The position numbers were made by a program, and so were the translations under genes. The notes below the pieces were generated by a model, which was not told where the DNA came from, did no database searches, and saw only the letters and a list, made by a program, of their open reading frames with translations. 35,494 nt of DNA, taken from positions 1-35,494 of the forward strand of contig JACQJI010000024.1 in the NCBI GenBank assembly GCA_016198045.1, in the 5' to 3' direction. Numbering within the stretch: the first letter of the stretch is position 1; the number at the start of each line of letters is the position of its first letter. The DNA is from Candidatus Doudnabacteria bacterium (GTDB lineage Bacteria > Patescibacteriota > Doudnabacteria > UBA920 > O2-02-FULL-48-8). Below, piece after piece: positions 148 to 30,740 of the stretch.

Positions 148-1896
148 ATGAGTTTAGACCTACAGGAATTGAAGCGGGCGGTGGTGGGTAAAAAAATCGT
201 CACAGCTAAGGTCTGGGACGATTTGGTGAAGGAAGCCACGGATAAAAAACAGGCGGTGGAGCAGCTGCTGATCGACAAAAAGATTTTGGACGAAGAAAAA
301 CTGGCCCAGCTCGCCGCTGGGTTTTTGGATGCCCAGTATGCTGATCTCAAAAATGTCGGCCAAATCCCCAAGGAGGTTTTGTTGCTGGTGCCGGAGCCGA
401 TCGCCCGAAGGCATGGAGTAATTGCCTTTGGCAAAGAAAAAAATACCCTCAAACTGGCCATGCTTGATCCCAACGACCTGGAGACCAGGGATGCCATCAA
501 GAAAAAAACCGATTTGGTAGTTGAGCCGTTTTTAGTTTCCAAAAGCTCGCTGGACTGGGGATTGAAGCAGTATCACACCTCGCTGGAAGCTGAATTTGCC
601 AAAATCGTTTCCCAACCGCCAAAGGAAGGCGAGGGCGAAAAAGACGAAGTCACTCAGAAGCTTAAGGAGATGGCAGAAGAAATCCCGGTGGTGCGCGTGG
701 TGGACACGCTTTTGGAATACGCCATTTTGGAAAAAGCCTCAGACATTCACATCGAACCGCACGAAAAAGACGTCATTGTCCGCTACCGCATTGACGGCGT
801 GCTGCACGAAGTCATGACCCTGCCCAAAGTTATCCAACCGGCGCTGGTCGCCCGGATCAAAGTCATTGCCAACCTCAAGATCGACGAGCACCGCCTGCCC
901 CAGGACGGCCGGCTGAAGGTGGAAAAAGACGACTACAAAATTTCCATTCGCGTTTCCACCATTCCGGTGTTTGACGGCGAGAAGGTAGTCATGCGTTTGC
1001 TGGATGAGTCGGCCAAAGCCATGACTTTGGAAGAACTGGGATTCATTCATCGAAATTACGACACTATAATCAGGAACGTCAAAAAGCCTCATGGCGCCCT
1101 GCTGGTTACGGGACCCACTGGCAGCGGCAAATCCACCACGCTCTACACGATTATTTCCATGTTGAACACCAAAGGAGTCAATATCTCCACGATCGAGGAT
1201 CCGATTGAATACCATGTGCCAGGGGTCAACCAGATGCAAGTTAATCCCAAAATCGGATTGACTTTTGCCGTGGGGCTTCGGGCATTGCTTCGGCAAGACC
1301 CCAACGTCATCATGATCGGCGAAATTCGCGACCGTGAGACAGCCGAAGAGGCAGTGCACGCGGCACTCACCGGCCACGTGGTTCTGGCCACGCTTCATAC
1401 CAACAACGCCGGTGGGGCGCTGCCCAGGCTGTTGGATATCGGGGTCGAACCGTACCTGATCGCTTCCACGGTCAACGCGGTCGTGGGCCAGAGGTTGACC
1501 CGCCAGATTTGCCAGGACTGCAAAGAGGAAATGCATATTGACGAAGAGTACGAAGCAAGCTTGCGGAAAGAATACAACATTGACCATTTGTTGGAAATCA
1601 TGAAGCGCGAGGGGTTTATAGAGAAGAAAGCCAAGTCCTTAGCGGAGCTGACTTTCTACAAAGGCCGCGGCTGCGACAAGTGCGGCCAAAGCGGATACCG
1701 GACTCGCAAAGGAATTTTTGAAGTCTTGGAAGTCACTCCCGAAATCCAAGACCTGATCCTTAAGCACGCCCCGACTTCGCAAATCCAGGACAAGGCTGTG
1801 GAACAGGGCATGATTTTGATGTGGGAGGACGGATTTATCAAGGCTATCCAGGGCAAAACCACGATCGACGAGGTGATTAGAGTAAGTAAGGAATAA
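148..1896 (+). CDS. pilB: Type IV pilus assembly ATPase PilB (GspE family)
   Basis: Walker A VTGPTGSGKSTT, a GspE N-terminal domain, and a tetracysteine CQDC...CDKC. Start moved to ATG 148 (MSLDLQEL) because 49-147 only translates the upstream hairpin repeat. Confidence 0.9.
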   Translation: MSLDLQELKRAVVGKKIVTAKVWDDLVKEATDKKQAVEQLLIDKKILDEEKLAQLAAGFLDAQYADLKNVGQIPKEVLLLVPEPIARRHGVIAFGKEKNTLKLAMLDPNDLETRDAIKKKTDLVVEPFLVSKSSLDWGLKQYHTSLEAEFAKIVSQPPKEGEGEKDEVTQKLKEMAEEIPVVRVVDTLLEYAILEKASDIHIEPHEKDVIVRYRIDGVLHEVMTLPKVIQPALVARIKVIANLKIDEHRLPQDGRLKVEKDDYKISIRVSTIPVFDGEKVVMRLLDESAKAMTLEELGFIHRNYDTIIRNVKKPHGALLVTGPTGSGKSTTLYTIISMLNTKGVNISTIEDPIEYHVPGVNQMQVNPKIGLTFAVGLRALLRQDPNVIMIGEIRDRETAEEAVHAALTGHVVLATLHTNNAGGALPRLLDIGVEPYLIASTVNAVVGQRLTRQICQDCKEEMHIDEEYEASLRKEYNIDHLLEIMKREGFIEKKAKSLAELTFYKGRGCDKCGQSGYRTRKGIFEVLEVTPEIQDLILKHAPTSQIQDKAVEQGMILMWEDGFIKAIQGKTTIDEVIRVSKE

Positions 1897-1899
1897 CGA

Positions 1900-1927
1900 G
1901 GTTATAGATGATAGGTTATAGTTGATA
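1900..1927. repeat. Tandem heptamer/14-mer array (GGTTATAGATGATA / GGTTATAGTTGATA)
   Basis: Two 14-nt units matching at 13/14 positions in the pilB-pilC spacer. Stop codons occur in all frames. Confidence 0.6.
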
Positions 1928-1941
1928 GTAAGTTAAACTAA

Positions 1942-3156
1942 ATGCCAGAATATACATACACGGCTAGGAATAAATTGGGCGCTTCAGAGCACGACGTCAT
2001 GTCTGCCCTAAACGAGCATTCGGTGGCGGAGGCGCTGCGCGCGCGCGGCCTGAGCCCCACGGCCATTTCCGCGGTGAGGAAGTCTTTTGATATCCATGAT
2101 CTGCTGGAGGCAATAACTACCATTAAACTGATCGACAAGATCACGTTTATCAAAAATCTCTCGGTGATGCTGAGGGCCGGCTTGCCGGCGGCGCGATGCT
2201 TAAAGATTTTATCCGCCCAAACCACCAATCCCAAATTCGCCAAAATTATTTCAGAACTAGGAAGAAGCGTGGAAGGCGGCACAACCCTAGCCGATGCCAT
2301 GGCCAAGTATCCGCGAGTCTTTTCTCCAATTTTCGTCAGCATGGTCCGGGTTGGCGAAGTTTCGGGAAACTTGGAAAAAAATCTATTATATCTGTCTGAG
2401 CAGATGCAGCGCGACTATGACTTGATTTCCAAAGCGCGGGGAGCTTTGACTTATCCGATTATTGTCATGGTCGCCTTGGCGATTGTCGGATTTTTGATGT
2501 TTACCTTTGTCCTGCCCAAACTGACCGCTACCTTCAACGACTTAAACGTTCAGCTGCCCCTGATGACCCGCGTGGTTATGGCGACGGTTGACATTTTTGC
2601 GCGCTATGGGATTTTGATCTTTGTGCTGTTCCTGCTGATGATTATCGGATTTTTTTATTGGAGAAAGACTGAGAGCGGTAAAAAAATCGTTCACAAACTC
2701 GTATTTTACATCCCCATCAGTTCGCGAATTGTCAAGCAAATCAATCTCGCCAGGTTTGTCCGGACTTTTTCTTCCCTGATCAAAAGCGGCATGCAGATTG
2801 TGGAGGCTCTGGAAGTCTCTTCCCATGTCGTGGGCAACATTTATTATCAGAAAGTCATATCCGACGCCGCAGCCAGAGTGAAAGTGGGCTCGCCGCTGGC
2901 TACCAGCTTCAAAAAACAGCCCAAATTGTTCCCGAATTTAGTCGTGGAAATGATGGAGGTGGGGGAAGAATCGGGGACCACTGACCAAGTGCTGGCGGAA
3001 GTCGCCAATTTTTACGAAACCGAAGTGGACCAGACCATGAAAAACCTTTCTACTATCCTCGAACCAGTGATCATGATGGTCATTGGCGCGGTAGTCGGGC
3101 TTTTGGCCATTGCGCTGGTCACCCCGATTTATAATATTACGCAGAGCATAAATTAG
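1942..3156 (+). CDS. pilC: Type IV pilus platform protein PilC (GspF family)
   Basis: 404 aa polytopic membrane protein with the duplicated GspF-type architecture, immediately downstream of pilB. Confidence 0.9.
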   Translation: MPEYTYTARNKLGASEHDVMSALNEHSVAEALRARGLSPTAISAVRKSFDIHDLLEAITTIKLIDKITFIKNLSVMLRAGLPAARCLKILSAQTTNPKFAKIISELGRSVEGGTTLADAMAKYPRVFSPIFVSMVRVGEVSGNLEKNLLYLSEQMQRDYDLISKARGALTYPIIVMVALAIVGFLMFTFVLPKLTATFNDLNVQLPLMTRVVMATVDIFARYGILIFVLFLLMIIGFFYWRKTESGKKIVHKLVFYIPISSRIVKQINLARFVRTFSSLIKSGMQIVEALEVSSHVVGNIYYQKVISDAAARVKVGSPLATSFKKQPKLFPNLVVEMMEVGEESGTTDQVLAEVANFYETEVDQTMKNLSTILEPVIMMVIGAVVGLLAIALVTPIYNITQSIN

Positions 3157-3158
3157 TC

Positions 3159-3557
3159 ATGAATCACGTATCACGTATCACGGATCAAAAGGGTATTAGC
3201 CTCATTGAAGTCATTGTCAGTATGGGCATAATCCTGGTTTTGTTTATCTTGTATATCGCGGCCCAAAATACGGTGGTGCAGAGCAGGAAGTTGCGGTACG
3301 AAAACCTGGCTTACCATGTCGCCAACAAACAAATGGAAGAACTGAGAGGGACGAGTTTTGCGACTCTGCCGTTGTCCGGGACGATCAGTGACAGTATGCT
3401 TAGCCAGATCCCTTCCGGAAGTGGCAATTTTTCGGTTACGGATTACTCCGGCTTCAGCGGCCTAAAAGAGCTCGTGGTAACAGTGAGTTGGAATGACGGG
3501 GTTAGCAAGCAAATCCAGCTTAAGACCGTGGCCGGAAGCGGAGGAATTAATCCTTAG
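3159..3557 (+). CDS. Prepilin-type pseudopilin (N-terminal cleavage/methylation domain)
   Basis: Leader MNHVSRITDQKG followed by ISLIEVIVSMGIILVLF (class III signal peptide). The leader is encoded by an ATCACGT x3 heptamer array at 3163-3183. Confidence 0.8.
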   Translation: MNHVSRITDQKGISLIEVIVSMGIILVLFILYIAAQNTVVQSRKLRYENLAYHVANKQMEELRGTSFATLPLSGTISDSMLSQIPSGSGNFSVTDYSGFSGLKELVVTVSWNDGVSKQIQLKTVAGSGGINP

Positions 3558-3591
3558 GTATAGAGTATTTGGTATTAGGGTATATGGTATG
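3557..3591. repeat. Left GGTAT-type heptamer array flanking the four-helix-bundle ORF
   Basis: About 5 degenerate heptamers (GAGTATT TGGTATT AGGGTAT ATGGTAT), the reverse-complement word family of the array at 3951-3985. GTATTTGGTATT (3565-3576) is the exact complement of 3951-3962. Confidence 0.55.
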
Positions 3592-4518
3592 ACCAACAGC
3601 ATTAAAAATTTTAGTCAGTTAGTAGTTTGGCAAGAGGCGCATAAGCTGGCTGTTAAAGTGTATGGTTTTACCGATGCTTTTCCCAGACATGAAAAATTTG
3701 GTTTATCCTCACAGCTTCAAAGAGCCGCTGTATCCGTGCCTTCTAATATCGCAGAGGGTTTTAAGAGAGGATCTAGCAAAGAGAAAGTCCAGTTTTATAG
3801 GACAGCGGACGGCTCTTTATCCGAGCTTGAAAGCCAATTGATTCTTGCACGTGACCTCAGTTATTTAAACGAAAGTGCTTACAAAGATTTACTAAGCAAT
3901 ATCAACTCGGTCAACCGTTTATTAAACGCTTTTATAAAAAGCGCATCTAAAATACCAAATACTAAATACCATCTACCAAATACCTCTTCGGGCTTTACCT
4001 TAATAGAAATTATCGTTGTGGTTGCCATGTTCGCCATGACCATGCTGATTTTGGCTGACTTGTTTGTGGGCCAAAACCAAATTTATCGGACTCAAACCGC
4101 GGAGCTCAACGTGACTTCTGACGCCAGAGTGGCTTTGGACGAGGTGGACGCCGCGGTGAGGGCCGCAGACGTGGTGGCAGGGAGCTTCGGCAGCTTCACC
4201 ACCGGCCCGCAAACTTTGGTGTTACAAATTCCTGCCATCAACGCGTCCAACCAGATTATCGCGGCCACTTATGATTATATGGTTTATTACCTAAACGGCA
4301 CTAATTTTTTCCGGCAGATTATCCCAAATGCCGCAAGTTCCCGGTCGGCCCAGACAAAGAAGCTGGCCTCCAATGTCACCGGGTTGCTGTTTAGCTATGA
4401 CAATGCCGATTTGGCAGCGGTCAAACAAGTCGCGACCGATGTCACTGTGCAAGAGACGGCATCGCGCTACACGCGTTCCATCACTCTGTCGTCCAAATCG
4501 AAATTAAGAAACAACTGA
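3589..4518 (+). CDS. Four-helix-bundle protein (TIGR02436 / 23S rRNA IVS / Avd family) fused in frame to a prepilin-type pseudopilin
   Basis: Residues 1-~120 carry WQEAHKL...PSNIAEG...DGSLSELESQL, typical of the four-helix-bundle family. There is no stop; the frame continues through IPNTKYHLPNTSS into G|FTLIEIIVVVAMF (G at 3991). No ATG/GTG/TTG lies between 3951 and 3991 in this frame. Confidence 0.7.
   Translation: MTNSIKNFSQLVVWQEAHKLAVKVYGFTDAFPRHEKFGLSSQLQRAAVSVPSNIAEGFKRGSSKEKVQFYRTADGSLSELESQLILARDLSYLNESAYKDLLSNINSVNRLLNAFIKSASKIPNTKYHLPNTSSGFTLIEIIVVVAMFAMTMLILADLFVGQNQIYRTQTAELNVTSDARVALDEVDAAVRAADVVAGSFGSFTTGPQTLVLQIPAINASNQIIAATYDYMVYYLNGTNFFRQIIPNAASSRSAQTKKLASNVTGLLFSYDNADLAAVKQVATDVTVQETASRYTRSITLSSKSKLRNN
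3951..3985. repeat. Right heptamer array AATACCA AATACTA AATACCA TCTACCA AATACCT
   Basis: Five tandem 7-mers, inverted relative to the array at 3557-3591. Translated as part of the fusion linker. Confidence 0.65.
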
Positions 4519-5882
4519 TGTCACAGAAAGGCCAAATCATAATCATTGCCGCGGTTTTTATGCTCGTGGTGGTCGGGCTTATTTCTTCCCTGGTCGCTTA
4601 TGCCGGGATCCAGATTAAGGGACACCGGCAAGCTGTGGCCCGCGTGCTGGCGCTGAGTATCGCCGAAGCCGGCATTGAACAAGCTATTTGGAAATTAAAC
4701 AGCCAACCAGGCTACAATGGCGAGTCGGGTGTCGCCTACAACGGCGGCGCGTTTGACATTTCGATTACCAATCTTTCCGGCAGCTCCAAGCTTATTCGCG
4801 CCGAAGCGAAAGTGCCCAATAGTTCCAACCCTCGCGGCAAAAGAGTGGTCCAGGCCACCACCACCATTGATACCACCAACATCGCATTCAATTACGGGGT
4901 GCAAATAGGCGAAGGCGGCTTGGAAATGACCAACAGCTCAAGAGTCATCGGAAACGTTTATTCCAACGGCAACATCAATGGAGCTAACAGCGCCAGGATT
5001 CAAGGCACGGCCACGGTGGCCGGGAGCAGTAATGAAATCAGGGAGATGCAGGTTGATGGAAATGCCAATGCTTACTTAGTGGTGAATTCCACCATAGGCG
5101 GCAGTCTTACCACTTACCATTTGTTTGACGGCACAGTGGGCGGCAACGTGGTTGGCACCGCGCTTTCCACCTGCACGATCGGAGGCAATGCCGTTTACGA
5201 TACTATTTTCAACTGTAATGTTGGGGGGAGCAGCACCGCGCCTAATCCCGACGATTTCGTCGCAGCACCCCAGCTGCCGTTGCCCATTACCGATGAGCAG
5301 ATTGACGCTTGGGAAGACGAGGCCGAAGCCGGCGGAGTGATCAGCACCCAAAGCTATTCTTCCGGCAGCCGCAACCTCGGACCGAAAAAAATCAACGGCG
5401 ATTTGATCTTAAGCAACACGGCGCAAGTGGTGGTGACCGGCACCCTTTGGGTTACCGGACAAATCCGTTTAAGCAACAGCGCGATTTTAAGGTTGGACAG
5501 CAGTTACGGCAGTTTAAGCGGGGTGGTCTTGGCGGGAGTTGACGGCAGCAGCAGCGCCGGATACATCGAAGTTGCCAACAGCGCGCAACTGTTGGGATCT
5601 GGGACAGCTGGCAGTTATATCATGCTGCTTTCACAAAGAGTCGGGATAGCCAGCAACGCAATCAGGATGAGCAACGGCTCTGGGGCAGCCATTTTGTACT
5701 CGGGCGAAGGTGTCATAGAGATAAACAACAGCGCCGCGCTAAAAGAGGTTACGGCCTATAAATTGAAAATCACGAACAACGCGACCGTAACGTATGAATC
5801 TGGGCTGGCCAGTGCTCAGTTTTCGTCCGGCCCCGGCGGAGGTTGGGAAATGCTTGATGGGACGTGGCAACTATTACAGTGA
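4518..5882 (+). CDS. PilX-N-like minor pilin / putative tip protein with a beta-helix repeat region
   Basis: N-terminus MSQKGQIIIIAAVFMLVVVGL...SIAEAGIEQAIWKL resembles the PilX N-terminal domain. The middle has G-N-x-x-G/N repeats (GNVYSNGNINGANSARIQGTATVAG, bactofilin-like). The start overlaps the upstream stop (TGATG). Confidence 0.7.
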   Translation: MSQKGQIIIIAAVFMLVVVGLISSLVAYAGIQIKGHRQAVARVLALSIAEAGIEQAIWKLNSQPGYNGESGVAYNGGAFDISITNLSGSSKLIRAEAKVPNSSNPRGKRVVQATTTIDTTNIAFNYGVQIGEGGLEMTNSSRVIGNVYSNGNINGANSARIQGTATVAGSSNEIREMQVDGNANAYLVVNSTIGGSLTTYHLFDGTVGGNVVGTALSTCTIGGNAVYDTIFNCNVGGSSTAPNPDDFVAAPQLPLPITDEQIDAWEDEAEAGGVISTQSYSSGSRNLGPKKINGDLILSNTAQVVVTGTLWVTGQIRLSNSAILRLDSSYGSLSGVVLAGVDGSSSAGYIEVANSAQLLGSGTAGSYIMLLSQRVGIASNAIRMSNGSGAAILYSGEGVIEINNSAALKEVTAYKLKITNNATVTYESGLASAQFSSGPGGGWEMLDGTWQLLQ

Positions 5883-5908
5883 GTAGTTTGTAGTGAGTAG
5901 TGAGTAGC
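5881..5908. repeat. Tandem heptamer array GAGTAGT TTGTAGT GAGTAGT GAGTAGC
   Basis: Four 7-mers starting within the stop codon of the PilX-like gene. Stops occur in all frames. Confidence 0.6.
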
Positions 5909-5925: not shown

Positions 5926-7008
5926 ATGATTTCACTTTTTGGAAACAAAAAAATCCAAGCTTTCGGACTCGATATCTCCGACGCTTCGATCAAAGTCATG
6001 AATCTTAGGCGTAGGGAGCAAAGCCTGATCCCGGACGCTTTTGCCGATCAGCCGCTTCCTCCGAAAATTATCAGCAACCACGTGATTGCCAACGAGCGGC
6101 GGCTCGCGGAGAGCATTACTTACGCCGTCAACAAGGCGGGAAAGCTTGAGACTAAGTACGTAGTCGCTTCGCTGCCCGAAGCCAAATCTTTTGTTCGCTT
6201 GCTCAGCATGGCGGCCATGTCCGATGCGGAAATCGACGGCGCCATCCCCTGGGAACTGGAGCAGGATATTCCCGTTCCTGTGGATCAGGTTTACCTGGAT
6301 TGGGAAGTTGTGGCAAAGACAGGAGACAAGCTAACCGTGCTGGTCGCGGCCACCCAGAAGGATTATGTTGATTCGCTGGTTGAGTCCTTGAAACTTGCTC
6401 ACCTTAGACCCGTAGCTTTGGAGCTGGAATCCCAGGCTGTTGCCCGCTGCGTGGTTGGTTTACAGGAAGCCAAAGAAACGGTGTTGATTTTGGATATTGC
6501 CAGCGTTCAGACCACCTTTATTATCGTGGAAGACGGGGTGCTGAAATACACTTCCAGCATCGGGGTGGCGGGGAACGCGTTGACTGAAAGCATTGCCAGG
6601 AGTTTGGGAATTTCCGCGGCCGAAGCCGAAAAATTAAAAAAGGATACCGGCTTGGTGCTGGAAAGCCGGCGCAATGTGCGTCAAGCGATTTTGCCGATAC
6701 TCGACAACATAATTGACGAGATCAAAAATGTTGCGAGATTTCACGAAGAGCATTCAGCAAGCCGCAAGCCGATTAGTAAAATTTTGCTCTGCGGCGGATC
6801 AGCGCGCTTGGCGGGAGTTGCTGATTATGTCTCGACTCGAGTAAACCTGGGCAGCGGCAAGCCGCTGGGCAAAGTACAGTTGGGCAATCCCTGGAGCAAT
6901 TTGGCCATTACCAAAATTGACAAATCGGTTCCGCAGACCCCGGAGCAGGCCTTAAGCTTTACCACCGCCATTGGTTTGGCGCTGAGAGGAGTGATCCATG
7001 GCAGTTAA
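5926..7008 (+). CDS. pilM: Type IV pilus assembly protein PilM (actin-like ATPase fold)
   Basis: 360 aa with FGLDISDASIKV and the pattern ...LLCGGSARLAGVADYV. Located upstream of pilN/pilO. Confidence 0.9.
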   Translation: MISLFGNKKIQAFGLDISDASIKVMNLRRREQSLIPDAFADQPLPPKIISNHVIANERRLAESITYAVNKAGKLETKYVVASLPEAKSFVRLLSMAAMSDAEIDGAIPWELEQDIPVPVDQVYLDWEVVAKTGDKLTVLVAATQKDYVDSLVESLKLAHLRPVALELESQAVARCVVGLQEAKETVLILDIASVQTTFIIVEDGVLKYTSSIGVAGNALTESIARSLGISAAEAEKLKKDTGLVLESRRNVRQAILPILDNIIDEIKNVARFHEEHSASRKPISKILLCGGSARLAGVADYVSTRVNLGSGKPLGKVQLGNPWSNLAITKIDKSVPQTPEQALSFTTAIGLALRGVIHGS

Positions 7009-7549: not shown

Positions 7550-8133
7550 CCGCGAAAATAAGATTTACATTACTGCTGGTTGGAGGGCTGTTCATCTGCC
7601 TGGGCGTGTATTTTTTCCTTTTCAAGCCGGTTTTGAATCAATTATCAGCTCAGTCCGAAGTCCTGAGGCAAAAAAATGTCGAAGTGGCTACCATGAGGCA
7701 GCAAATTATCGCTTACAAAAGCGCCCAGACAGATCTCTCCAAAGCCGTGGAGAAAGATCGGATCTTAAATGCGCTTTTGCAGCGGGAAGAGCTGGTTTCC
7801 GCCATTAAAAATTTAGAAAAAGCGGCTTCGGTCACCAAAACTTCCGAAACTTTAAAAATCAACGAACCGGGCGCAGAGCAAGATAACTTACCAGACCCGG
7901 TGGTGGAAGCCGGGGGGTATCTGGGAGAAATTCCTTACCGTGTTTCCACAATCAATGATTTCTTAGGGACTGTCCAGTTTTTGAGGTATTTGGAGCACCT
8001 GCCCCAATTTACCGAAATCGCTCAAATTAATCTTTCTGCCGAAACCGTGGATTCGGATACCCAAGGACGGATATATACCGGAAAAGTATTTGGAACCATT
8101 GATGGCGTATTTTTCGTCAAAACTTCCCCATGA
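7546..8133 (+). CDS. pilO: PilO-like pilus assembly protein
   Basis: GTG start in a GTGA overlap with pilN. N-terminal TM segment, coiled coil, then a C-terminal alpha/beta region. Confidence 0.75.
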   Translation: MTAKIRFTLLLVGGLFICLGVYFFLFKPVLNQLSAQSEVLRQKNVEVATMRQQIIAYKSAQTDLSKAVEKDRILNALLQREELVSAIKNLEKAASVTKTSETLKINEPGAEQDNLPDPVVEAGGYLGEIPYRVSTINDFLGTVQFLRYLEHLPQFTEIAQINLSAETVDSDTQGRIYTGKVFGTIDGVFFVKTSP

Positions 8134-8381
8134 AATTACCCAAAGTTAAACTTAATCTAATTCTCACCGCGGCTCTCGCGACAGTTCTACTGGTTGAGCT
8201 ATATTTGGGTTATATTTATATTTTCCGGAATTTGACTTCTGAGTCAGAAGAAGTAGCACCCCGAAACGTGGTTCGGGTCAATCTCGAGCGCTACCAGGAA
8301 ACAGTTCAGTTTCTTACCAGCCAAGAAAATTATAGCGCCGGTCCGGTTAACCTCAAACGGCCCAATCCTTTCAGACCATGA
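8130..8381 (+). CDS. Small single-pass membrane protein ending the pilus operon
   Basis: 83 aa with one TM segment. ATGA overlaps with both pilO (8130-8133) and purA (8378-8381). Confidence 0.6.
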   Translation: MKLPKVKLNLILTAALATVLLVELYLGYIYIFRNLTSESEEVAPRNVVRVNLERYQETVQFLTSQENYSAGPVNLKRPNPFRP

Positions 8382-9802
8382 ACATTCTTGAAAACTTTAG
8401 ACATTGGGTGATCGTTGGGGGGCAATGGGGGGACGAGGCCAAAGGCAAAATTACCGACCTGCTCGCCCCCTTTTTTGATTATGTCGTGCGCTACGCTGGT
8501 GGTTCCAACGCAGGACACACGACCCATGTGCCTGAGGGCAAAATCGTGGGACACCTGATTCCAAGCGGCCTGGCACAGGGCAAAACCTGTGTCGTTGGCC
8601 GCGGCGTATTTTTTGACTTCGACGCATTTCTTAAGGAATTCTCAGACGTGGAAAAAATTTTGGGAAAAAATTTGCCGTCAATTTGGATTGACGAAGCTTG
8701 CACGGTTCGCACGCCCTGGCATAGTTATCTGGAAACTTGGTTTGAAAAGACCCGGGGCAGCCGCTGGGGCAACACTACGCAGAAGGCGATCAGTCCGATG
8801 GCCAGCATTCGGGCGGCCCGGCTGGATATAAAAATTGCCGACTTGCTGGGCGATAAGCACAGCCTTATGGTCAAGCTTGGGATCCTGCAAGAAGTATTCA
8901 AGCCAATTTTCGAAACCATGCGCCAAAGCGGTGTCATTGTTAATATTGCAAGCCCTGATGAAGTCGGGTCTTATCTTATCGGCCAGGCTGAACAAATCAG
9001 AAAAAAGGTTAGGGATACGCGCCGGTTGCTTTTGGCGGCTTCAAAGCAAGGTCAGCGAATTTTATTTGAAGGCGCGCAGGCAGCGTTGCTGGATGCCAAT
9101 TGGGGAACCTGGCCTTATACTTCGTCGCCCAGCTCAACAGCAGGAGGCGTGTTTGCCGAAACCGGTTTGCCGCCGGGACCTTTGGGTGTGGGTATGGTGG
9201 TCAAAATTTTGCCGACCCGGGTAGGCGCAGGCCCCATGCCAACCGAAATCTGGGACAGAGTCGAGGCTGAGCAATTTTCCAAACAGCGCCCCGAGTTGTT
9301 TGAACAAGGACCAAGCCGAGACAACTTTTTATCCCAATACTTAGCTAATATCAACGCTCAAACAGCCACGGAAGCCGAAATTTCTCAATACTTTCAAGTC
9401 TTGGGAGACGAACGAGGTTCGACCACCGGACGAGGCAGAAGCGTCGGCTACATAGACATTCCTGCTATTCAATATGCCGCAGAGATTAACGGTCCGCAAT
9501 TTCTGGCTCTGACCAAGCTGGATATGCTCTCAGGGCTTAATTCGATCAAAGTTGCCGTAGCTTACCGCTATCAAGGGCAAATACTGGAAGCTGGAGCTTT
9601 GCCGCCGGCCAATCACCTGCACGAAGTTCGATCGATATACGAAGAATGGCCCTGTTGGCAGGAAGATATCCGCGATTGCCGCAATTTTGTGGATTTGCCG
9701 CCAAAGGCCCAGAATCTGGTCGTGAAGTTTGAAGAACTAATCAAGGTCCCGATTCGGCTGATCAGTGTTAAGCCTACTCGCGAAGCCGTGATTGTTCGTT
9801 GA
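8378..9802 (+). CDS. purA: Adenylosuccinate synthetase
   Basis: GGQWGDEAKGK P-loop, GGSNAGHT, HLIPSG and TTGRGRS motifs. Carries a ~40-aa insertion relative to the E. coli enzyme. Confidence 0.92.
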   Translation: MNILENFRHWVIVGGQWGDEAKGKITDLLAPFFDYVVRYAGGSNAGHTTHVPEGKIVGHLIPSGLAQGKTCVVGRGVFFDFDAFLKEFSDVEKILGKNLPSIWIDEACTVRTPWHSYLETWFEKTRGSRWGNTTQKAISPMASIRAARLDIKIADLLGDKHSLMVKLGILQEVFKPIFETMRQSGVIVNIASPDEVGSYLIGQAEQIRKKVRDTRRLLLAASKQGQRILFEGAQAALLDANWGTWPYTSSPSSTAGGVFAETGLPPGPLGVGMVVKILPTRVGAGPMPTEIWDRVEAEQFSKQRPELFEQGPSRDNFLSQYLANINAQTATEAEISQYFQVLGDERGSTTGRGRSVGYIDIPAIQYAAEINGPQFLALTKLDMLSGLNSIKVAVAYRYQGQILEAGALPPANHLHEVRSIYEEWPCWQEDIRDCRNFVDLPPKAQNLVVKFEELIKVPIRLISVKPTREAVIVR

Positions 9803-24088: not shown

Positions 24089-24394
24089 ATGCCCAGTAAT
24101 ACAACTTTCGGCGTGTTCTTCTACGTTTATGTTTTAGAAAGCCTAAAAGACGGGGATAGATATATAGGCTACACTGGTCGTTTAAAAAAACGGGTAGAAG
24201 AACACGAAAAAGGACTAAGTTTTGCGACAAAATTTAGATTGCCGTTTAAACTGATTTATTTTGAAGGCTGCACTAATCAGCAAGACGCAAGACGCCGTGA
24301 AGATTATTTGAAAACAACCCAGGGGCGTCGATTCCTGGGATTAAGATTAAAAGAATACAAGCGTGAGACGGCGCTTGCGTCTTCCGAAAGTTGA
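24089..24394 (+). CDS. Stand-alone GIY-YIG nuclease domain protein (UPF0213/YhbQ-like)
   Basis: FFYVYVLES...DRYIGYTGRLKKRVEEHEKG...LIYFEGC...ARRREDYLKT pattern. Wedged 2 nt after purB and 9 nt before purF. Confidence 0.85.
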   Translation: MPSNTTFGVFFYVYVLESLKDGDRYIGYTGRLKKRVEEHEKGLSFATKFRLPFKLIYFEGCTNQQDARRREDYLKTTQGRRFLGLRLKEYKRETALASSES

Positions 24395-27298: not shown

Positions 27299-27405
27299 TT
27301 AGGATTTCCCTCCCCTGAATGGGGAGGGACTAAGGGAGGGGTGATGCTTAAGCCTTAAGCCACCCCCACCTAACCTCCCCCATCAAGGGGGAGGGATCCG
27401 AACCC
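27299..27405. repeat. GC-rich polypurine/polypyrimidine multi-hairpin intergenic repeat, copy B
   Basis: TCCCTCCCC-TGAAT-GGGGAGGGA (27307-27329), GGGGTG..GCTTAAG-C-CTTAAGC..CACCCC (27338-27366) and CCTCCCCC-ATCAA-GGGGGAGG (27374-27394). The 5' half is nearly identical to copy A. It ends about 10 nt before the purN ATG. Confidence 0.7.
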
Positions 27406-29638: not shown

Positions 29639-30740
29639 TTAGATCTTGAACATTTTTTCCAGAACGTCGGTTTTCGTTTCCGGAAACTCGAAGTTGCTCC
29701 AACCGTATCGGTCAGGATCAAAACCTTCGCCGCAAGTGGTTTCAATCAGAGCGGTGCAGATTTGATATGGATCCAAGTTGGCTGCCGGCCTGCGGTCTTC
29801 CAGATACCCATAGCCTTTGTTCGCGGTTTCCATAGGGATCCGGATGGAAGCGCCGCGGTCGGAAACTGCATAGCGGAAATTGTAAATGCTGCAGGTTTCG
29901 TGCTTGCCGGTTAGCCGCTTGTCATTGTCTGCGCCGTACACTCGGATATGTTGTTTGTGGAATTTACCCAATTTTTCGCAGGTTGATTTGACTAAATCCA
30001 TACCTCCGGTTTCGCGCATTTGCCGAATCGAGAAATTGGTATGGCCGCCGGCGCCATTCCAGTCGCCACTCATCGGTTTGGGGTCAAGCTTGGCGTATGC
30101 GTTGAAATCTTCACCGATTCGATAAAGCAGCCAGCGGGCAAGCCAGAGCTGGTCGGATACTTCCAGAGGCGGCAAGGTTCCCACCTGAAATTCCCACTGT
30201 GCCGGCATAACTTCCGCATTAATCCCGGAAATTGTTAGGCCCGCTTCTAGGCAGGCTTTCATGTGGGCGTCAACAAGATTGCGGCCGTGAACTTCGTCGT
30301 AACCAACCCCGCAGTAGTAGCGACCTTGGGGGGTGGGGGAAACCTTTCTCCGGCCAGCCAAGCGGCCAATCCTTGCGGTACAAGGTATATTCCTGTTCGA
30401 TGCCAAACAACGGTTCTGCTGCTTTGTATTTTTCCACGAGTTTGGCTAAAATGTGGCGGGTGTTCGAAACGTGGGGTGTGCCGTCAGGATTGAGCACTTC
30501 GCACATAACCAAAATATTGTCTCCTTTTCTCACCGGATCAGGAATGTAATAGACTGGTTTAAGCATGCAATCGCTGGAATGGCCTTCAGCCTGTTCGGTG
30601 GAGGAGCCGTCGAATCCCCAGTTGGGAATATCTTCCAGCCTCCGGACAGAGCCTGCAATAATTTTGGTTTTTGACCTCAATTTGGCGGTTGGCCGTTGAC
30701 CGTCCATCCAGATGTATTCGGCCATGATGCGTTGATACAT
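29639..30740 (-). pseudogene. glnA: Type II (eukaryote-like) glutamine synthetase interrupted by a 1-nt frameshift in a C-run
   Basis: Two overlapping ORFs in different frames (30270-30740 and 29639-30406). Motifs AEYIWMDG and GWPEKGFPHP in one, PQGRYYCGVG, MPAQWEFQVG and NGAGGHTNFS in the other. Deleting one C from the minus-strand C6 run (G6 at 30328-30333 on plus) restores GFPHPQGRYYC. Confidence 0.85.

Follow-up and report, generated by a model that had tools for sequence, protein, structure and literature searches.

A four-helix-bundle cassette between complementary heptamer arrays, fused in frame to a pseudopilin in a pilus operon of Candidatus Doudnabacteria

Pili are central to the episymbiotic lifestyle of bacteria belonging to the Candidate Phyla Radiation (CPR). 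The contig JACQJI010000024.1 of the CPR member Candidatus Doudnabacteria bacterium (assembly GCA_016198045.1), analyzed over its whole length of 35,494 nucleotides and hereafter called the window, to whose forward strand all coordinates refer, opens with a type IV pilus-like operon containing an unusual open reading frame (ORF) of 309 residues (3589-4518, forward strand). In this ORF, a four-helix-bundle (4HB) protein of the PF05635 / TIGR02436 family, i.e., the S23p or 23S-rRNA intervening-sequence (IVS) proteins, runs without a stop codon into a minor pseudopilin, pseudopilin B, that has no start of its own, and the 4HB part is bracketed by two mutually complementary heptamer arrays. The IVS-type S23p cassette as such is known; what is new is its occurrence in an mRNA, as the putative start and pro-domain of a pseudopilin. 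The reading towards which we lean, with no great margin of confidence, is that an IVS-type selfish cassette has settled in the operon and that a functional pilin B is made from it as a cleaved 309-residue precursor.

The left array (3554-3591, forward strand; GC 0.34) reads TTAGGTA TAGAGTA TTTGGTA TTAGGGT ATATGGT ATG; it is rich in purines and T, contains TAG three times and terminates in the ATG of the cassette (3589). Its GGTAT-type words stand 7-8 nucleotides apart, Tandem Repeats Finder (TRF) calls it with a period of 15 and 2.3 copies, and it is more degenerate than the right array (3950-3985, forward strand), which reads AAATACC AAATACT AAATACC ATCTACC AAATACC T and is called over 3950-3984 with a period of 7, 5.0 copies and 78% matches. 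The right array is complementary to the left: GTATTTGGTATT (3565-3576) is the exact complement of 3951-3962, the best inverted pair (3557-3576 with 3951-3970) is complementary at 18 of 20 positions, and the duplex of the two arms (3556-3590 with 3950-3985) has an energy of -29.8 kcal/mol. Together the arrays can close into an imperfect stem of ~27 bp, and the minimum-free-energy fold of 3540-4000 encloses the ORF in this stem (z = -3.65, with none of 100 shuffles as good). The 12-mer, when up to two mismatches are allowed, occurs 11 times against 3.07 expected, and six of the 11 occurrences lie inside the two arrays.

The 4HB domain itself occupies residues 1-120 (3589-3948, forward strand) and has no stop codon. 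It matches PF05635 over profile positions 2-106 of 106 (E 2.3e-38; 131 bits against a cut-off of 33.8) and TIGR02436 with E 9.4e-36 (122 bits against 24). In the AlphaFold2 model, built for the monomer, helices are found at residues 12-28, 39-59, 63-89 and 95-120, with a pLDDT of ~90 over residues 12-120, and in Foldseek comparisons this model superimposes on Xcc0516 (PDB 2GSC), a homopentameric ring and the nearest solved structure (phmmer E 6e-19), with a TM score of 0.96, a root-mean-square deviation of 0.7 A and 35-37% identity, and on BT_0352 (PDB 2RLD) with a TM score of 0.88. The closest database relatives are at most 62% identical, single-domain and free-standing proteins of 116-143 residues; the top 120 homologs measure 114-143 residues, and the PF05635-type family comprises 4,998 clusters at E <= 1e-10. 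An earlier note on this DNA, made from its letters alone, had linked the domain to Avd, the accessory protein of diversity-generating retroelements (DGR). This identity had to be given up: the matches to NF033474 (40.3 bits against a cut-off of 80) and PF22296 (34.3 against 40) fall short, no reverse transcriptase domain is present among the 25 large window ORFs scanned, and no template or variable repeats were seen.

Beyond the bundle, the frame passes through the right array as KIPNTKYHLPNTSS, which forms the linker KIPNTKYHLPNT, and enters the prepilin cleavage and methylation motif G|FTLIE (3991-4008, forward strand; G-1 at 3991-3993, E+5 at 4006-4008). Residues 132-155 match the N_methyl prepilin motif over the Pfam cut-off (PF07963, 24.1 bits against 21.2), TIGR02532 is also matched, and in an alignment of 19 orthologs G135 is invariant and F136 nearly so. 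The mature part (3994-4518, forward strand) is a minor pseudopilin of the GspJ/XcpW/EpsJ type (Foldseek matches 3NJE, 2RET and 5VTM); it corresponds to the C-terminal 175 residues and has 27 homologs with 50-71% identity, among which only the window protein carries PF05635. Its stop codon TGA (4516-4518) overlaps the ATG of the next gene (TGATG, 4516-4520). The model shows two well-folded domains, with the pilin helix at residues 138-192 and the array-encoded linker as the sole disordered segment (pLDDT <50 at residues 126-133). The last in-frame ATG, GTG or TTG before G3991 is the TTG at 3838, within the bundle, the other two frames are closed (TAA 3948/3963 and TAA 4001/TAG 4004), and the cassette ATG at 3589 is the sole credible start for the 309-residue ORF. 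An internal start for the pilin was considered and found unlikely, as the only near-cognate codons nearby in frame are ATA 3934 and ATA 3952, neither with a Shine-Dalgarno sequence, and TTG 3838 lies deep in the bundle. The earlier note had described the 4HB ORF, the inverted arrays, the missing stop and the G|FTLIE motif at these same positions, had recognized in them an IVS-type architecture with the ORF in the loop of an inverted-heptamer stem, lying within a pilus operon instead of rRNA, and had held that pilin B can be translated only as a fusion, there being no in-frame ATG, GTG or TTG between 3951 and 3991; the present analysis bears out all of these points, and extends the stretch free of such codons back to 3838. 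That an artefact, namely an error in the A5 homopolymer at 3936-3940 or a chimeric join in what is a metagenome assembly, made a false fusion is hardly credible, since two further independent assemblies from Logan (SRR12113383 and SRR12113385) have 100% identical DNA across 1812-5816 (identity over 3.4-4.0 kb) and the same design recurs in 14 relatives. A sequencing error in the A5 run was rejected in particular because three assemblies agree and no insertion or deletion there restores a pilin start.

The composition of the segment and its comparison with orthologous operons (designated here, like all loci compared, by L numbers) point to an insertion. Over 3557-3990 the GC content is 0.31-0.40, and at third codon positions the 4HB part has a GC content of 0.375, whereas the pilus genes on either side have 0.59-0.65. 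The insert (3554-3990) sits at the stop/start overlap of pseudopilins A and B, next to the junction GGAGGAATTAATCC (3540-3553, forward strand), which is conserved in comparison with L003, L004, L085, L086, L087 and L088. In these orthologs, pilin A ends ...GGINP*, and the junction provides the Shine-Dalgarno sequence and spacer of pilin B, whose start, in an overlapping ATGA or GTGA, comes directly after the conserved GGAGGnATnAATCC. Because the window reads AATCC-TTAG where the orthologs read AATCC-ATGA or AATCC-GTGA and then a short leader, the start of pilin B has been lost, as the earlier note had supposed, and the stop codon TAG of pilin A (3555-3557) now comes from the first word of the left array. 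In orthologous Doudnabacteria operons, this stop/start overlap comes with leaders of 5-12 residues, for example MKKSRPDSNQKG|F in L085 and MMKSRG|F in L086, most other homologs having M-x(3-8)-G|F, against a leader of 135 residues including G-1 in the window. Since PF05635 is found in only one of 27 pilin homologs and the closest 4HB relatives (<=62%) are free-standing, the segment 3554-3990 is by these indications a recently acquired insertion and the fusion at this locus is lineage-specific. A new hitch-hiking cassette and a start-destroying insertion had been posed as alternatives; each description applies, for a recurrent hitch-hiker has removed the start, and it is only their mutual exclusion that falls away.

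Inserts without an ORF occupy the same junction in L003, L004, L087 and L088, and the pilin frame is open in all four. The insert in L004 is an inverted heptamer hairpin within the pilin B leader, and those in L003 and L087 are other structured or repeat inserts; their folding is of modest significance in L004 (z -2.0) and L003 (z -2.4) and not significant in L088 and L087. The closest ortholog, L003 (5984-6100), has a pilin B leader of 39 residues, which opens with three 9-nucleotide units, each with an ATG (ATGACGAGA ATGCGGTAT ATGTTTAAC), and continues with a perfect CCCCCCTTG/CAAGGGGGG hairpin and a second CAAGGGGGG; this in-frame insert at the same position is of another kind. Relative to L003 and L004, the window branch accounts for 0.57 of the total length in pilin A and 0.62 in pilin B; in PilB, PilC and the large pilin, where the window, L003 and L004 are equidistant, its share is 0.31-0.37. 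A rate acceleration specific to pilin B was not seen, given that the intact pilin A has an equally long branch; the long branch of both small pilins suggests recombination, or faster evolution, limited to them.

Fusions of this kind are not confined to the window. Among ~85 relatives, 14 have no stop codon after the 4HB part, and their frame continues for 145-390 codons into a tail that in every case begins with a hydrophobic export signal with no Met before it. Two of the tails are prepilins downstream of PilC (L025, ...ERG|FTIIEL; L061, ...DSG|FTMIEL), others are pilin-like proteins upstream of PilM (L030, L057 and L065), and the remainder are cohesin-like surface proteins with Sec-type signal peptides and an AxA|A site (L005, L006, L024, L032, L043, L051, L053, L069 and L077). 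Within a group, the fused tails are 36-54% identical, while the frames are open and the G|FTxIE or AxA|A motifs are kept, and this maintenance of junction and cleavage motifs over a long divergence argues that the fusions are translated and processed; the arrangement, as far as this divergence can tell, is old and maintained. The 14 fusions represent only four or five independent events, and their statistical weight is modest. The simplest explanation for the restriction of fusions to exported proteins would be tolerance, as leader peptidases discard the N-terminal part. A fusion census with a profile of 13 junctions against a set of 5.8 billion proteins returned only five short 4HB proteins, the query being too short for a set of that size.

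Unfused relatives show what may be intermediate states. In L075 (Omnitrophota), the 4HB stop is followed by the pilin start in TAATG, and the prepilin MTCLRYTIYDIRYTKCG|FTLLE has a leader that is the (ATACGAT)5 right array, whereas in L088 the 4HB stop and three nucleotides precede ATG-SSSRIKDHQSG|MSLIE, the right array encoding the pilin A leader MSSSRIKDHQSG. In L089 (2870-2960), whose 4HB protein is 61% identical to that of the window, the stop and two nucleotides are followed by the ATG of a dockerin-like protein with a signal peptide encoded by the right array. In the group with TAGAATA/TATTCTA words, the translation of the array (YSIFYIL, from TAT TCT ATA TTC TAT ATT CTA) is the hydrophobic core of a signal peptide. 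Right arrays serving as the core of a Sec signal peptide (e.g., VFQILNSIFLILLLLLIPYSRFLIPNS and SYILNSIFFLILLFSTFYILNPS) were also observed in L089, L016 (558-640), L032, L043, L053, L077 and L051, and the proteins bearing such array-encoded cores are dockerin- or cohesin-like surface proteins. The repeat DNA apparently acts here as a portable export signal.

These comparisons bear on a rival explanation that is doubtful but deserves to be taken seriously, namely that the window holds a young pseudogene in which the insertion knocked out the pilin B start, the open junction is luck and the 309-residue product is either not made or not functional. The start codon is indeed lost, the insertion is recent enough that its other copies are identical and visible decay would have had no time to appear, an open in-frame junction of 14 codons has a chance of about 1 in 6, and the window branch is long for both pilin A and pilin B. 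However, the same architecture occurs in 14 other relatives across deep divergence with intact cleavage motifs, the ORF-less inserts of related operons keep the frame open, which speaks for selection on pilin B, the divergence of pilin B does not exceed that of the intact pilin A, and the downstream genes are still translationally linked to it through TGATG (4516-4520). The recurrent fusions, the unfused intermediates L075 and L088 and the open frames of the ORF-less inserts, together with the unexceptional divergence of pilin B and the two well-folded domains of the model, suggest that the window fusion is probably used.

The arrays are a property of the 4HB family at large. A sample of 80 loci was taken from GTDB genomes encoding 4HB proteins 40-55% identical to that of the window, spanning CPR phyla, Omnitrophota, Atribacterota, Bacteroidia, Planctomycetes, Proteobacteria and one Undinarchaeota contig, and array statistics were calculated for 81 cassettes with complete flanks. 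In nearly every 4HB gene, a tandem array stands directly 5' of the ATG and its reverse complement directly 3' of the ORF, and a period of 7 is the best one in 63 left and 66 right flanks. The words vary from gene to gene (AAGTTGT/ACAACTT, CTAAGGA/TCCTTAG, ATACGAT, GCATGTA and TAGAATA/TATTCTA, for instance), amounting to 65 distinct consensus words, and even neighboring cassettes in one genome use different ones, as do the three in L052 and the two each in L053 and L057. Complementarity between the arms of one cassette nevertheless averages 18/21, against 13.9 for arms of different cassettes, and reaches at least 17/24 in 77 of the 81; at most one mismatch separates the left consensus from the reverse-complemented right one in 44% of cassettes and in 6.5% of cross-pairs. 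Such matching of a cassette's own arms despite differing words, even between neighbors, implies that the two arms co-evolve as a pair. In a set of Saccharibacteria cassettes that precede one and the same gene (MDRNLALEF...; L014, L017, L020 and L027), visual inspection showed one compensatory change, with C:G in L014 where L017 and L027 have T:A. The flanks of homologs, which the earlier note had named as the place to look, thus have complementary arms with covarying words, but its idea of a new cassette type peculiar to pilins has to be abandoned: the class is widespread in co-directional junctions, and its fused partners include proteins with Sec signal peptides as well as pilins.

The position of the cassettes is equally regular. 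In unfused cassettes, a co-directional ORF ends a median of 45 nucleotides before the ATG (68 of 71) and another starts a median of 40 nucleotides after the stop (60 of 71), so that the arrays fill the spacer, leave no room for a promoter, and the cassettes would ride on host operon transcripts. Left arrays contain 8% C and 376 stop triplets, against 174 of the reverse complements of these triplets, and 54 of 78 cassettes (69%), compared with 40% of shuffles, have stops in all three frames within 45 nucleotides of the ATG, which fits a heptamer unit whose length is not a multiple of three. We infer that the left array stops incoming ribosomes in any frame. The composition break, the presence or absence of cassettes among orthologous operons and the case of L088 indicate that cassettes move or turn over. 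In L088, the 4HB cassette (719-1102) lies instead at the junction of PilC and pilin A, and a heptamer hairpin without an ORF at the junction of pilins A and B, within the pilin B leader (1500-1590), repeats 19 nucleotides (ATGTCATCGTCAAGGATCA) of that cassette's right array; it has the look of a copy made within the operon or of a deletion derivative. Several genomes have two or three 4HB cassettes that are adjacent or a few kb apart (L052, 1942-4331; L040; L092; L005/L006), and L005 and L006, located on the same Uhrbacteria contig, have identical upstream flanks. A 2.2-kb contig of an Undinarchaeota metagenome-assembled genome (MAG; L073, DPANN) holds a 4HB cassette with TATAGTA/TATACTA-type arrays, either through archaeal carriage or through a binning error.

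The conservation of arm complementarity throughout the family, irrespective of the word chosen, would also be expected if the stem were an RNA-processing element, that is, an RNase III site that cleaves or regulates the operon mRNA, for example by uncoupling pilB-pilC-pilA from the downstream genes or by tuning stability, with the fusion ORF being secondary. The long imperfect stem closing the ORF, and an anatomy identical to that of the Coxiella IVS, which is cut by RNase III at the first heptamer, are in line with this explanation. It is nonetheless unlikely as the principal one, because pilin B would be deprived of any start by a cut in the right arm, which is hard to square with fusions maintained for so long, and because the mismatches in the stems (57 G.U and 52 A.C) have no bias towards G.U that would favor RNA as the selected form. 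By analogy with the rRNA elements, RNase III excision at the window stem may be envisaged, and the length of the stem is compatible with an RNase III substrate.

While 4HB genes have arrays, arrays do not imply a 4HB gene. In metagenome contigs, the word AATACCAAATACNAAATACC has at least 120 matches; of 80, one adjoins a 4HB gene and 13 have a reverse-complement partner nearby, so that arrays of this word are mostly solo. Two of the 80, on contigs L101 and L132, belong to unrelated prepilins with a normal ATG, a leader encoded by (AAATACC)n and no adjacent 4HB gene, and both leaders, in L132 MKKNIPNTKYQIPNTKFG|FTLIE, have the same peptide repeat as the window linker. The window operon has solo arrays of its own: a period-7 array of the GGTTATA type fills the spacer between PilB and PilC (1899-1929, forward strand), the leader of pilin A, MNHVSRITDQKG, is the translation of another (3163-3187; TRF ATCACGT x 3.6), and AGTGAGT x 4.3 (5878-5907) lies after the large pilin-like gene, in the spacer that precedes PilM; for none of these three was an inverted partner seen. 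Outside the operon, the window has only period-7 matches of 2-3 copies (6757-6771, 24280-24295, 27347-27361 and 30682-30703).

Arrays of this sort invite the thought of phase variation, in which the gain or loss of one 7-nucleotide unit of the right array would shift the frame, switching the pseudopilin off and leaving the 4HB protein on. A unit that is not a multiple of three does lie within a coding region here, the shifted frames would meet the stops at 3948/3963 or 4001/4004, heptamer copy number differs among Coxiella strains, (AAATACC)n encodes the leaders of the unrelated prepilins in L101 and L132, and solo arrays stand at other junctions of the same operon. Yet the degeneracy of the array (78% matches) disfavors slippage, its length is the same in three assemblies, which are themselves identical, and slippage would leave the complementary left arm and the 4HB ORF unexplained, all of which makes this role very improbable. 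Neither RNA processing nor phase variation is mutually exclusive with the production of a cleaved pilin precursor.

The course of events under the favored precursor explanation can be outlined as follows. Cassettes of this class would inhabit junctions of co-directional genes and rely on the host for their transcription, and one of them would have landed exactly on the stop/start overlap of pilins A and B, where its first TAG came to terminate pilin A and the ATG and short leader of pilin B were removed. Pilin B would then be translated from ATG 3589 as a 309-residue precursor consisting of the 4HB protein, a disordered linker of 14 residues, G|FTLIE and the pilin, with initiation presumably relying on a weak AGGG or on re-initiation after the pilin A stop 31 nucleotides upstream. 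The precursor may insert with its N-terminus inside through the hydrophobic pilin helix, and prepilin peptidase may cut after G135, so that a mature pseudopilin of the normal kind results and the 4HB protein is set free in the cytoplasm. Such clipping is plausible and is indirectly supported by the cleavage motifs kept in the old fusions. In this scheme, fusions would survive only on exported proteins, on which a leader peptidase removes the upstream part, and, by analogy with rRNA IVSs, the stem may also be a target of RNase III or gate translation.

Several points weigh against this explanation. We know of no prepilin described with a folded leader of ~135 residues, and its acceptance by PilD is in doubt. 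The Shine-Dalgarno sequence of ATG 3589 is weak (AGGG, 8 nucleotides upstream), a stable stem would need to be melted by the ribosome, and an RNase III cut as in rRNA would part the pilin from its only start. The translation and cleavage of the window fusion are deduced from sequence, and the insertion appears so young, in view of its unameliorated composition and of there being only identical copies, that selection would have had little time to act on the fusion, while the open junction of 14 codons may be expected by chance in about one case in six. One of the fused relatives, L057 (2986-3010), is interrupted at codon 6 of its fused 4HB by a TAA in frame, in an A-rich run, which is either a sequencing error or the mark of a decaying copy. 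Finally, the spectrum of G.U and A.C mismatches gives no sign that a sense RNA hairpin, as against DNA or shared history, is what is selected.

A wider hypothesis can be put forward tentatively, as possible but less probable than the precursor at the window locus. According to it, PF05635 'IVS' genes are the cargo of general, undescribed operon-junction cassettes that are defined by complementary heptamer arrays whose word is free, the left array halting ribosomes and the right array being co-opted as a leader or signal peptide; some CPR pilins and surface proteins would be obligate 4HB pro-proteins, and rRNA IVSs would be just one habitat. If this is true, the right array sometimes supplies the only start of the downstream exported protein. 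To our knowledge, the S23p/IVS protein family, although known for ~30 years, has been assigned no function, and discussions have almost always treated it as an rRNA curiosity. The present data place the unit of an ORF in a heptamer hairpin in ordinary operons, where its arms co-evolve while the word drifts and where, in CPR bacteria, pilins and secreted proteins may come to use it as their translational start and pro-domain, possibly a new way of making exported proteins. The locus thus offers handles on the role of the element, be it RNA processing, translational coupling or mobility, and for annotation it follows that such fusion ORFs should be neither dismissed as errors nor split arbitrarily.

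The pilus operon takes up the first 8 kb of the window, and its nearest named homologs come from Doudnabacteria MAGs. On the forward strand, PilB (49-1896) and PilC (1942-3156) are followed by pseudopilin A (3159-3557), which has the N_methyl motif and 69-72% identity to pilin A of L003 and L004, by the 309-residue ORF, the large pilin-like gene (4518-5882) and PilM (5926-7008), and then by PilN and PilO; the locus is syntenic with L003 and L004. In L003, the closest reference genome, PilM (8121-9139) is split into two overlapping ORFs of 219 and 138 residues, suggesting a frameshift or assembly error there, and the window PilM is intact. The remainder of the window carries purine-synthesis and other housekeeping genes and tRNAs, and an Rfam scan of the window returned tRNAs only and no rRNA.

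In the literature searched, heptamers beside S23p/PF05635 genes were met only in the Coxiella IVS, the regularity of paired arrays throughout the PF05635 family was not found described, and no paper was found on 4HB cassettes outside rRNA or on their fusion to exported proteins, the searchable literature being incomplete. The 23S rRNA IVS of Coxiella has two to three tandem GACAGAT units and one degenerate unit directly before the S23p ATG, these heptamers lie inside a stem that is cut by RNase III at the first heptamer, and the number of units is strain-variable (PMC4990558). In a study of rRNA insertions in CPR bacteria, 23S_rRNA_IVP ORFs were recorded within them. The rRNA IVSs of the Leptospira, Coxiella and Xanthomonas type share with the window cassette the protein family and an ORF in the loop of a stem of terminal inverted repeats, as well as tandem heptamers on the 5' side (in Coxiella), the lack of an own promoter with expression from the host transcript, and a patchy, insertion-like distribution. 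They differ from it in lying in an rRNA helix, whereas the window cassette lies at a gene junction within the mRNA of a type IV pilus operon, has an ORF without a stop that is fused to the downstream gene, and has its right arm translated; RNase III excision, harmless in an rRNA IVS, would be harmful here.

Other known systems resemble individual parts of the locus. The heptanucleotide repeats known as STRR in cyanobacteria, or of the GGGAATC type in Xanthomonas and Nostoc, likewise consist of 7-nucleotide tandem units with variable words, are intergenic and sometimes form inverted pairs (PMC4692102); unlike them, the window arrays bracket a specific gene family and complement each other, and S23p or intervening sequences have no mention in that paper. 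DGR Avd (PDB 4DWL and 8UB7) has the same fold as the window 4HB domain, with TM scores of 0.85-0.89, but the domain gives only weak matches to PF22296 and NF033474. The free-standing TIGR02436 proteins of ~115-140 residues have the same fold too, and the relatives examined bear the same inverted heptamer arrays, but these proteins end in their own stop, whereas the window copy has none and forms the N-terminal part of a 309-residue ORF. With type IV prepilins and the minor pseudopilins of type II secretion systems (GspJ, XcpW and EpsJ), pilin B of the window shares G|FTLIE, the N-terminal hydrophobic helix, the beta domain and the operon setting with PilB, PilC, PilM, PilN and PilO, and orthologs with normal leaders exist; ordinary prepilins, however, have a short leader of a few to ~30 residues with its own start, in contrast to the 135-residue leader of the window pilin B, which contains a folded domain and provides the pilin with no start of its own.

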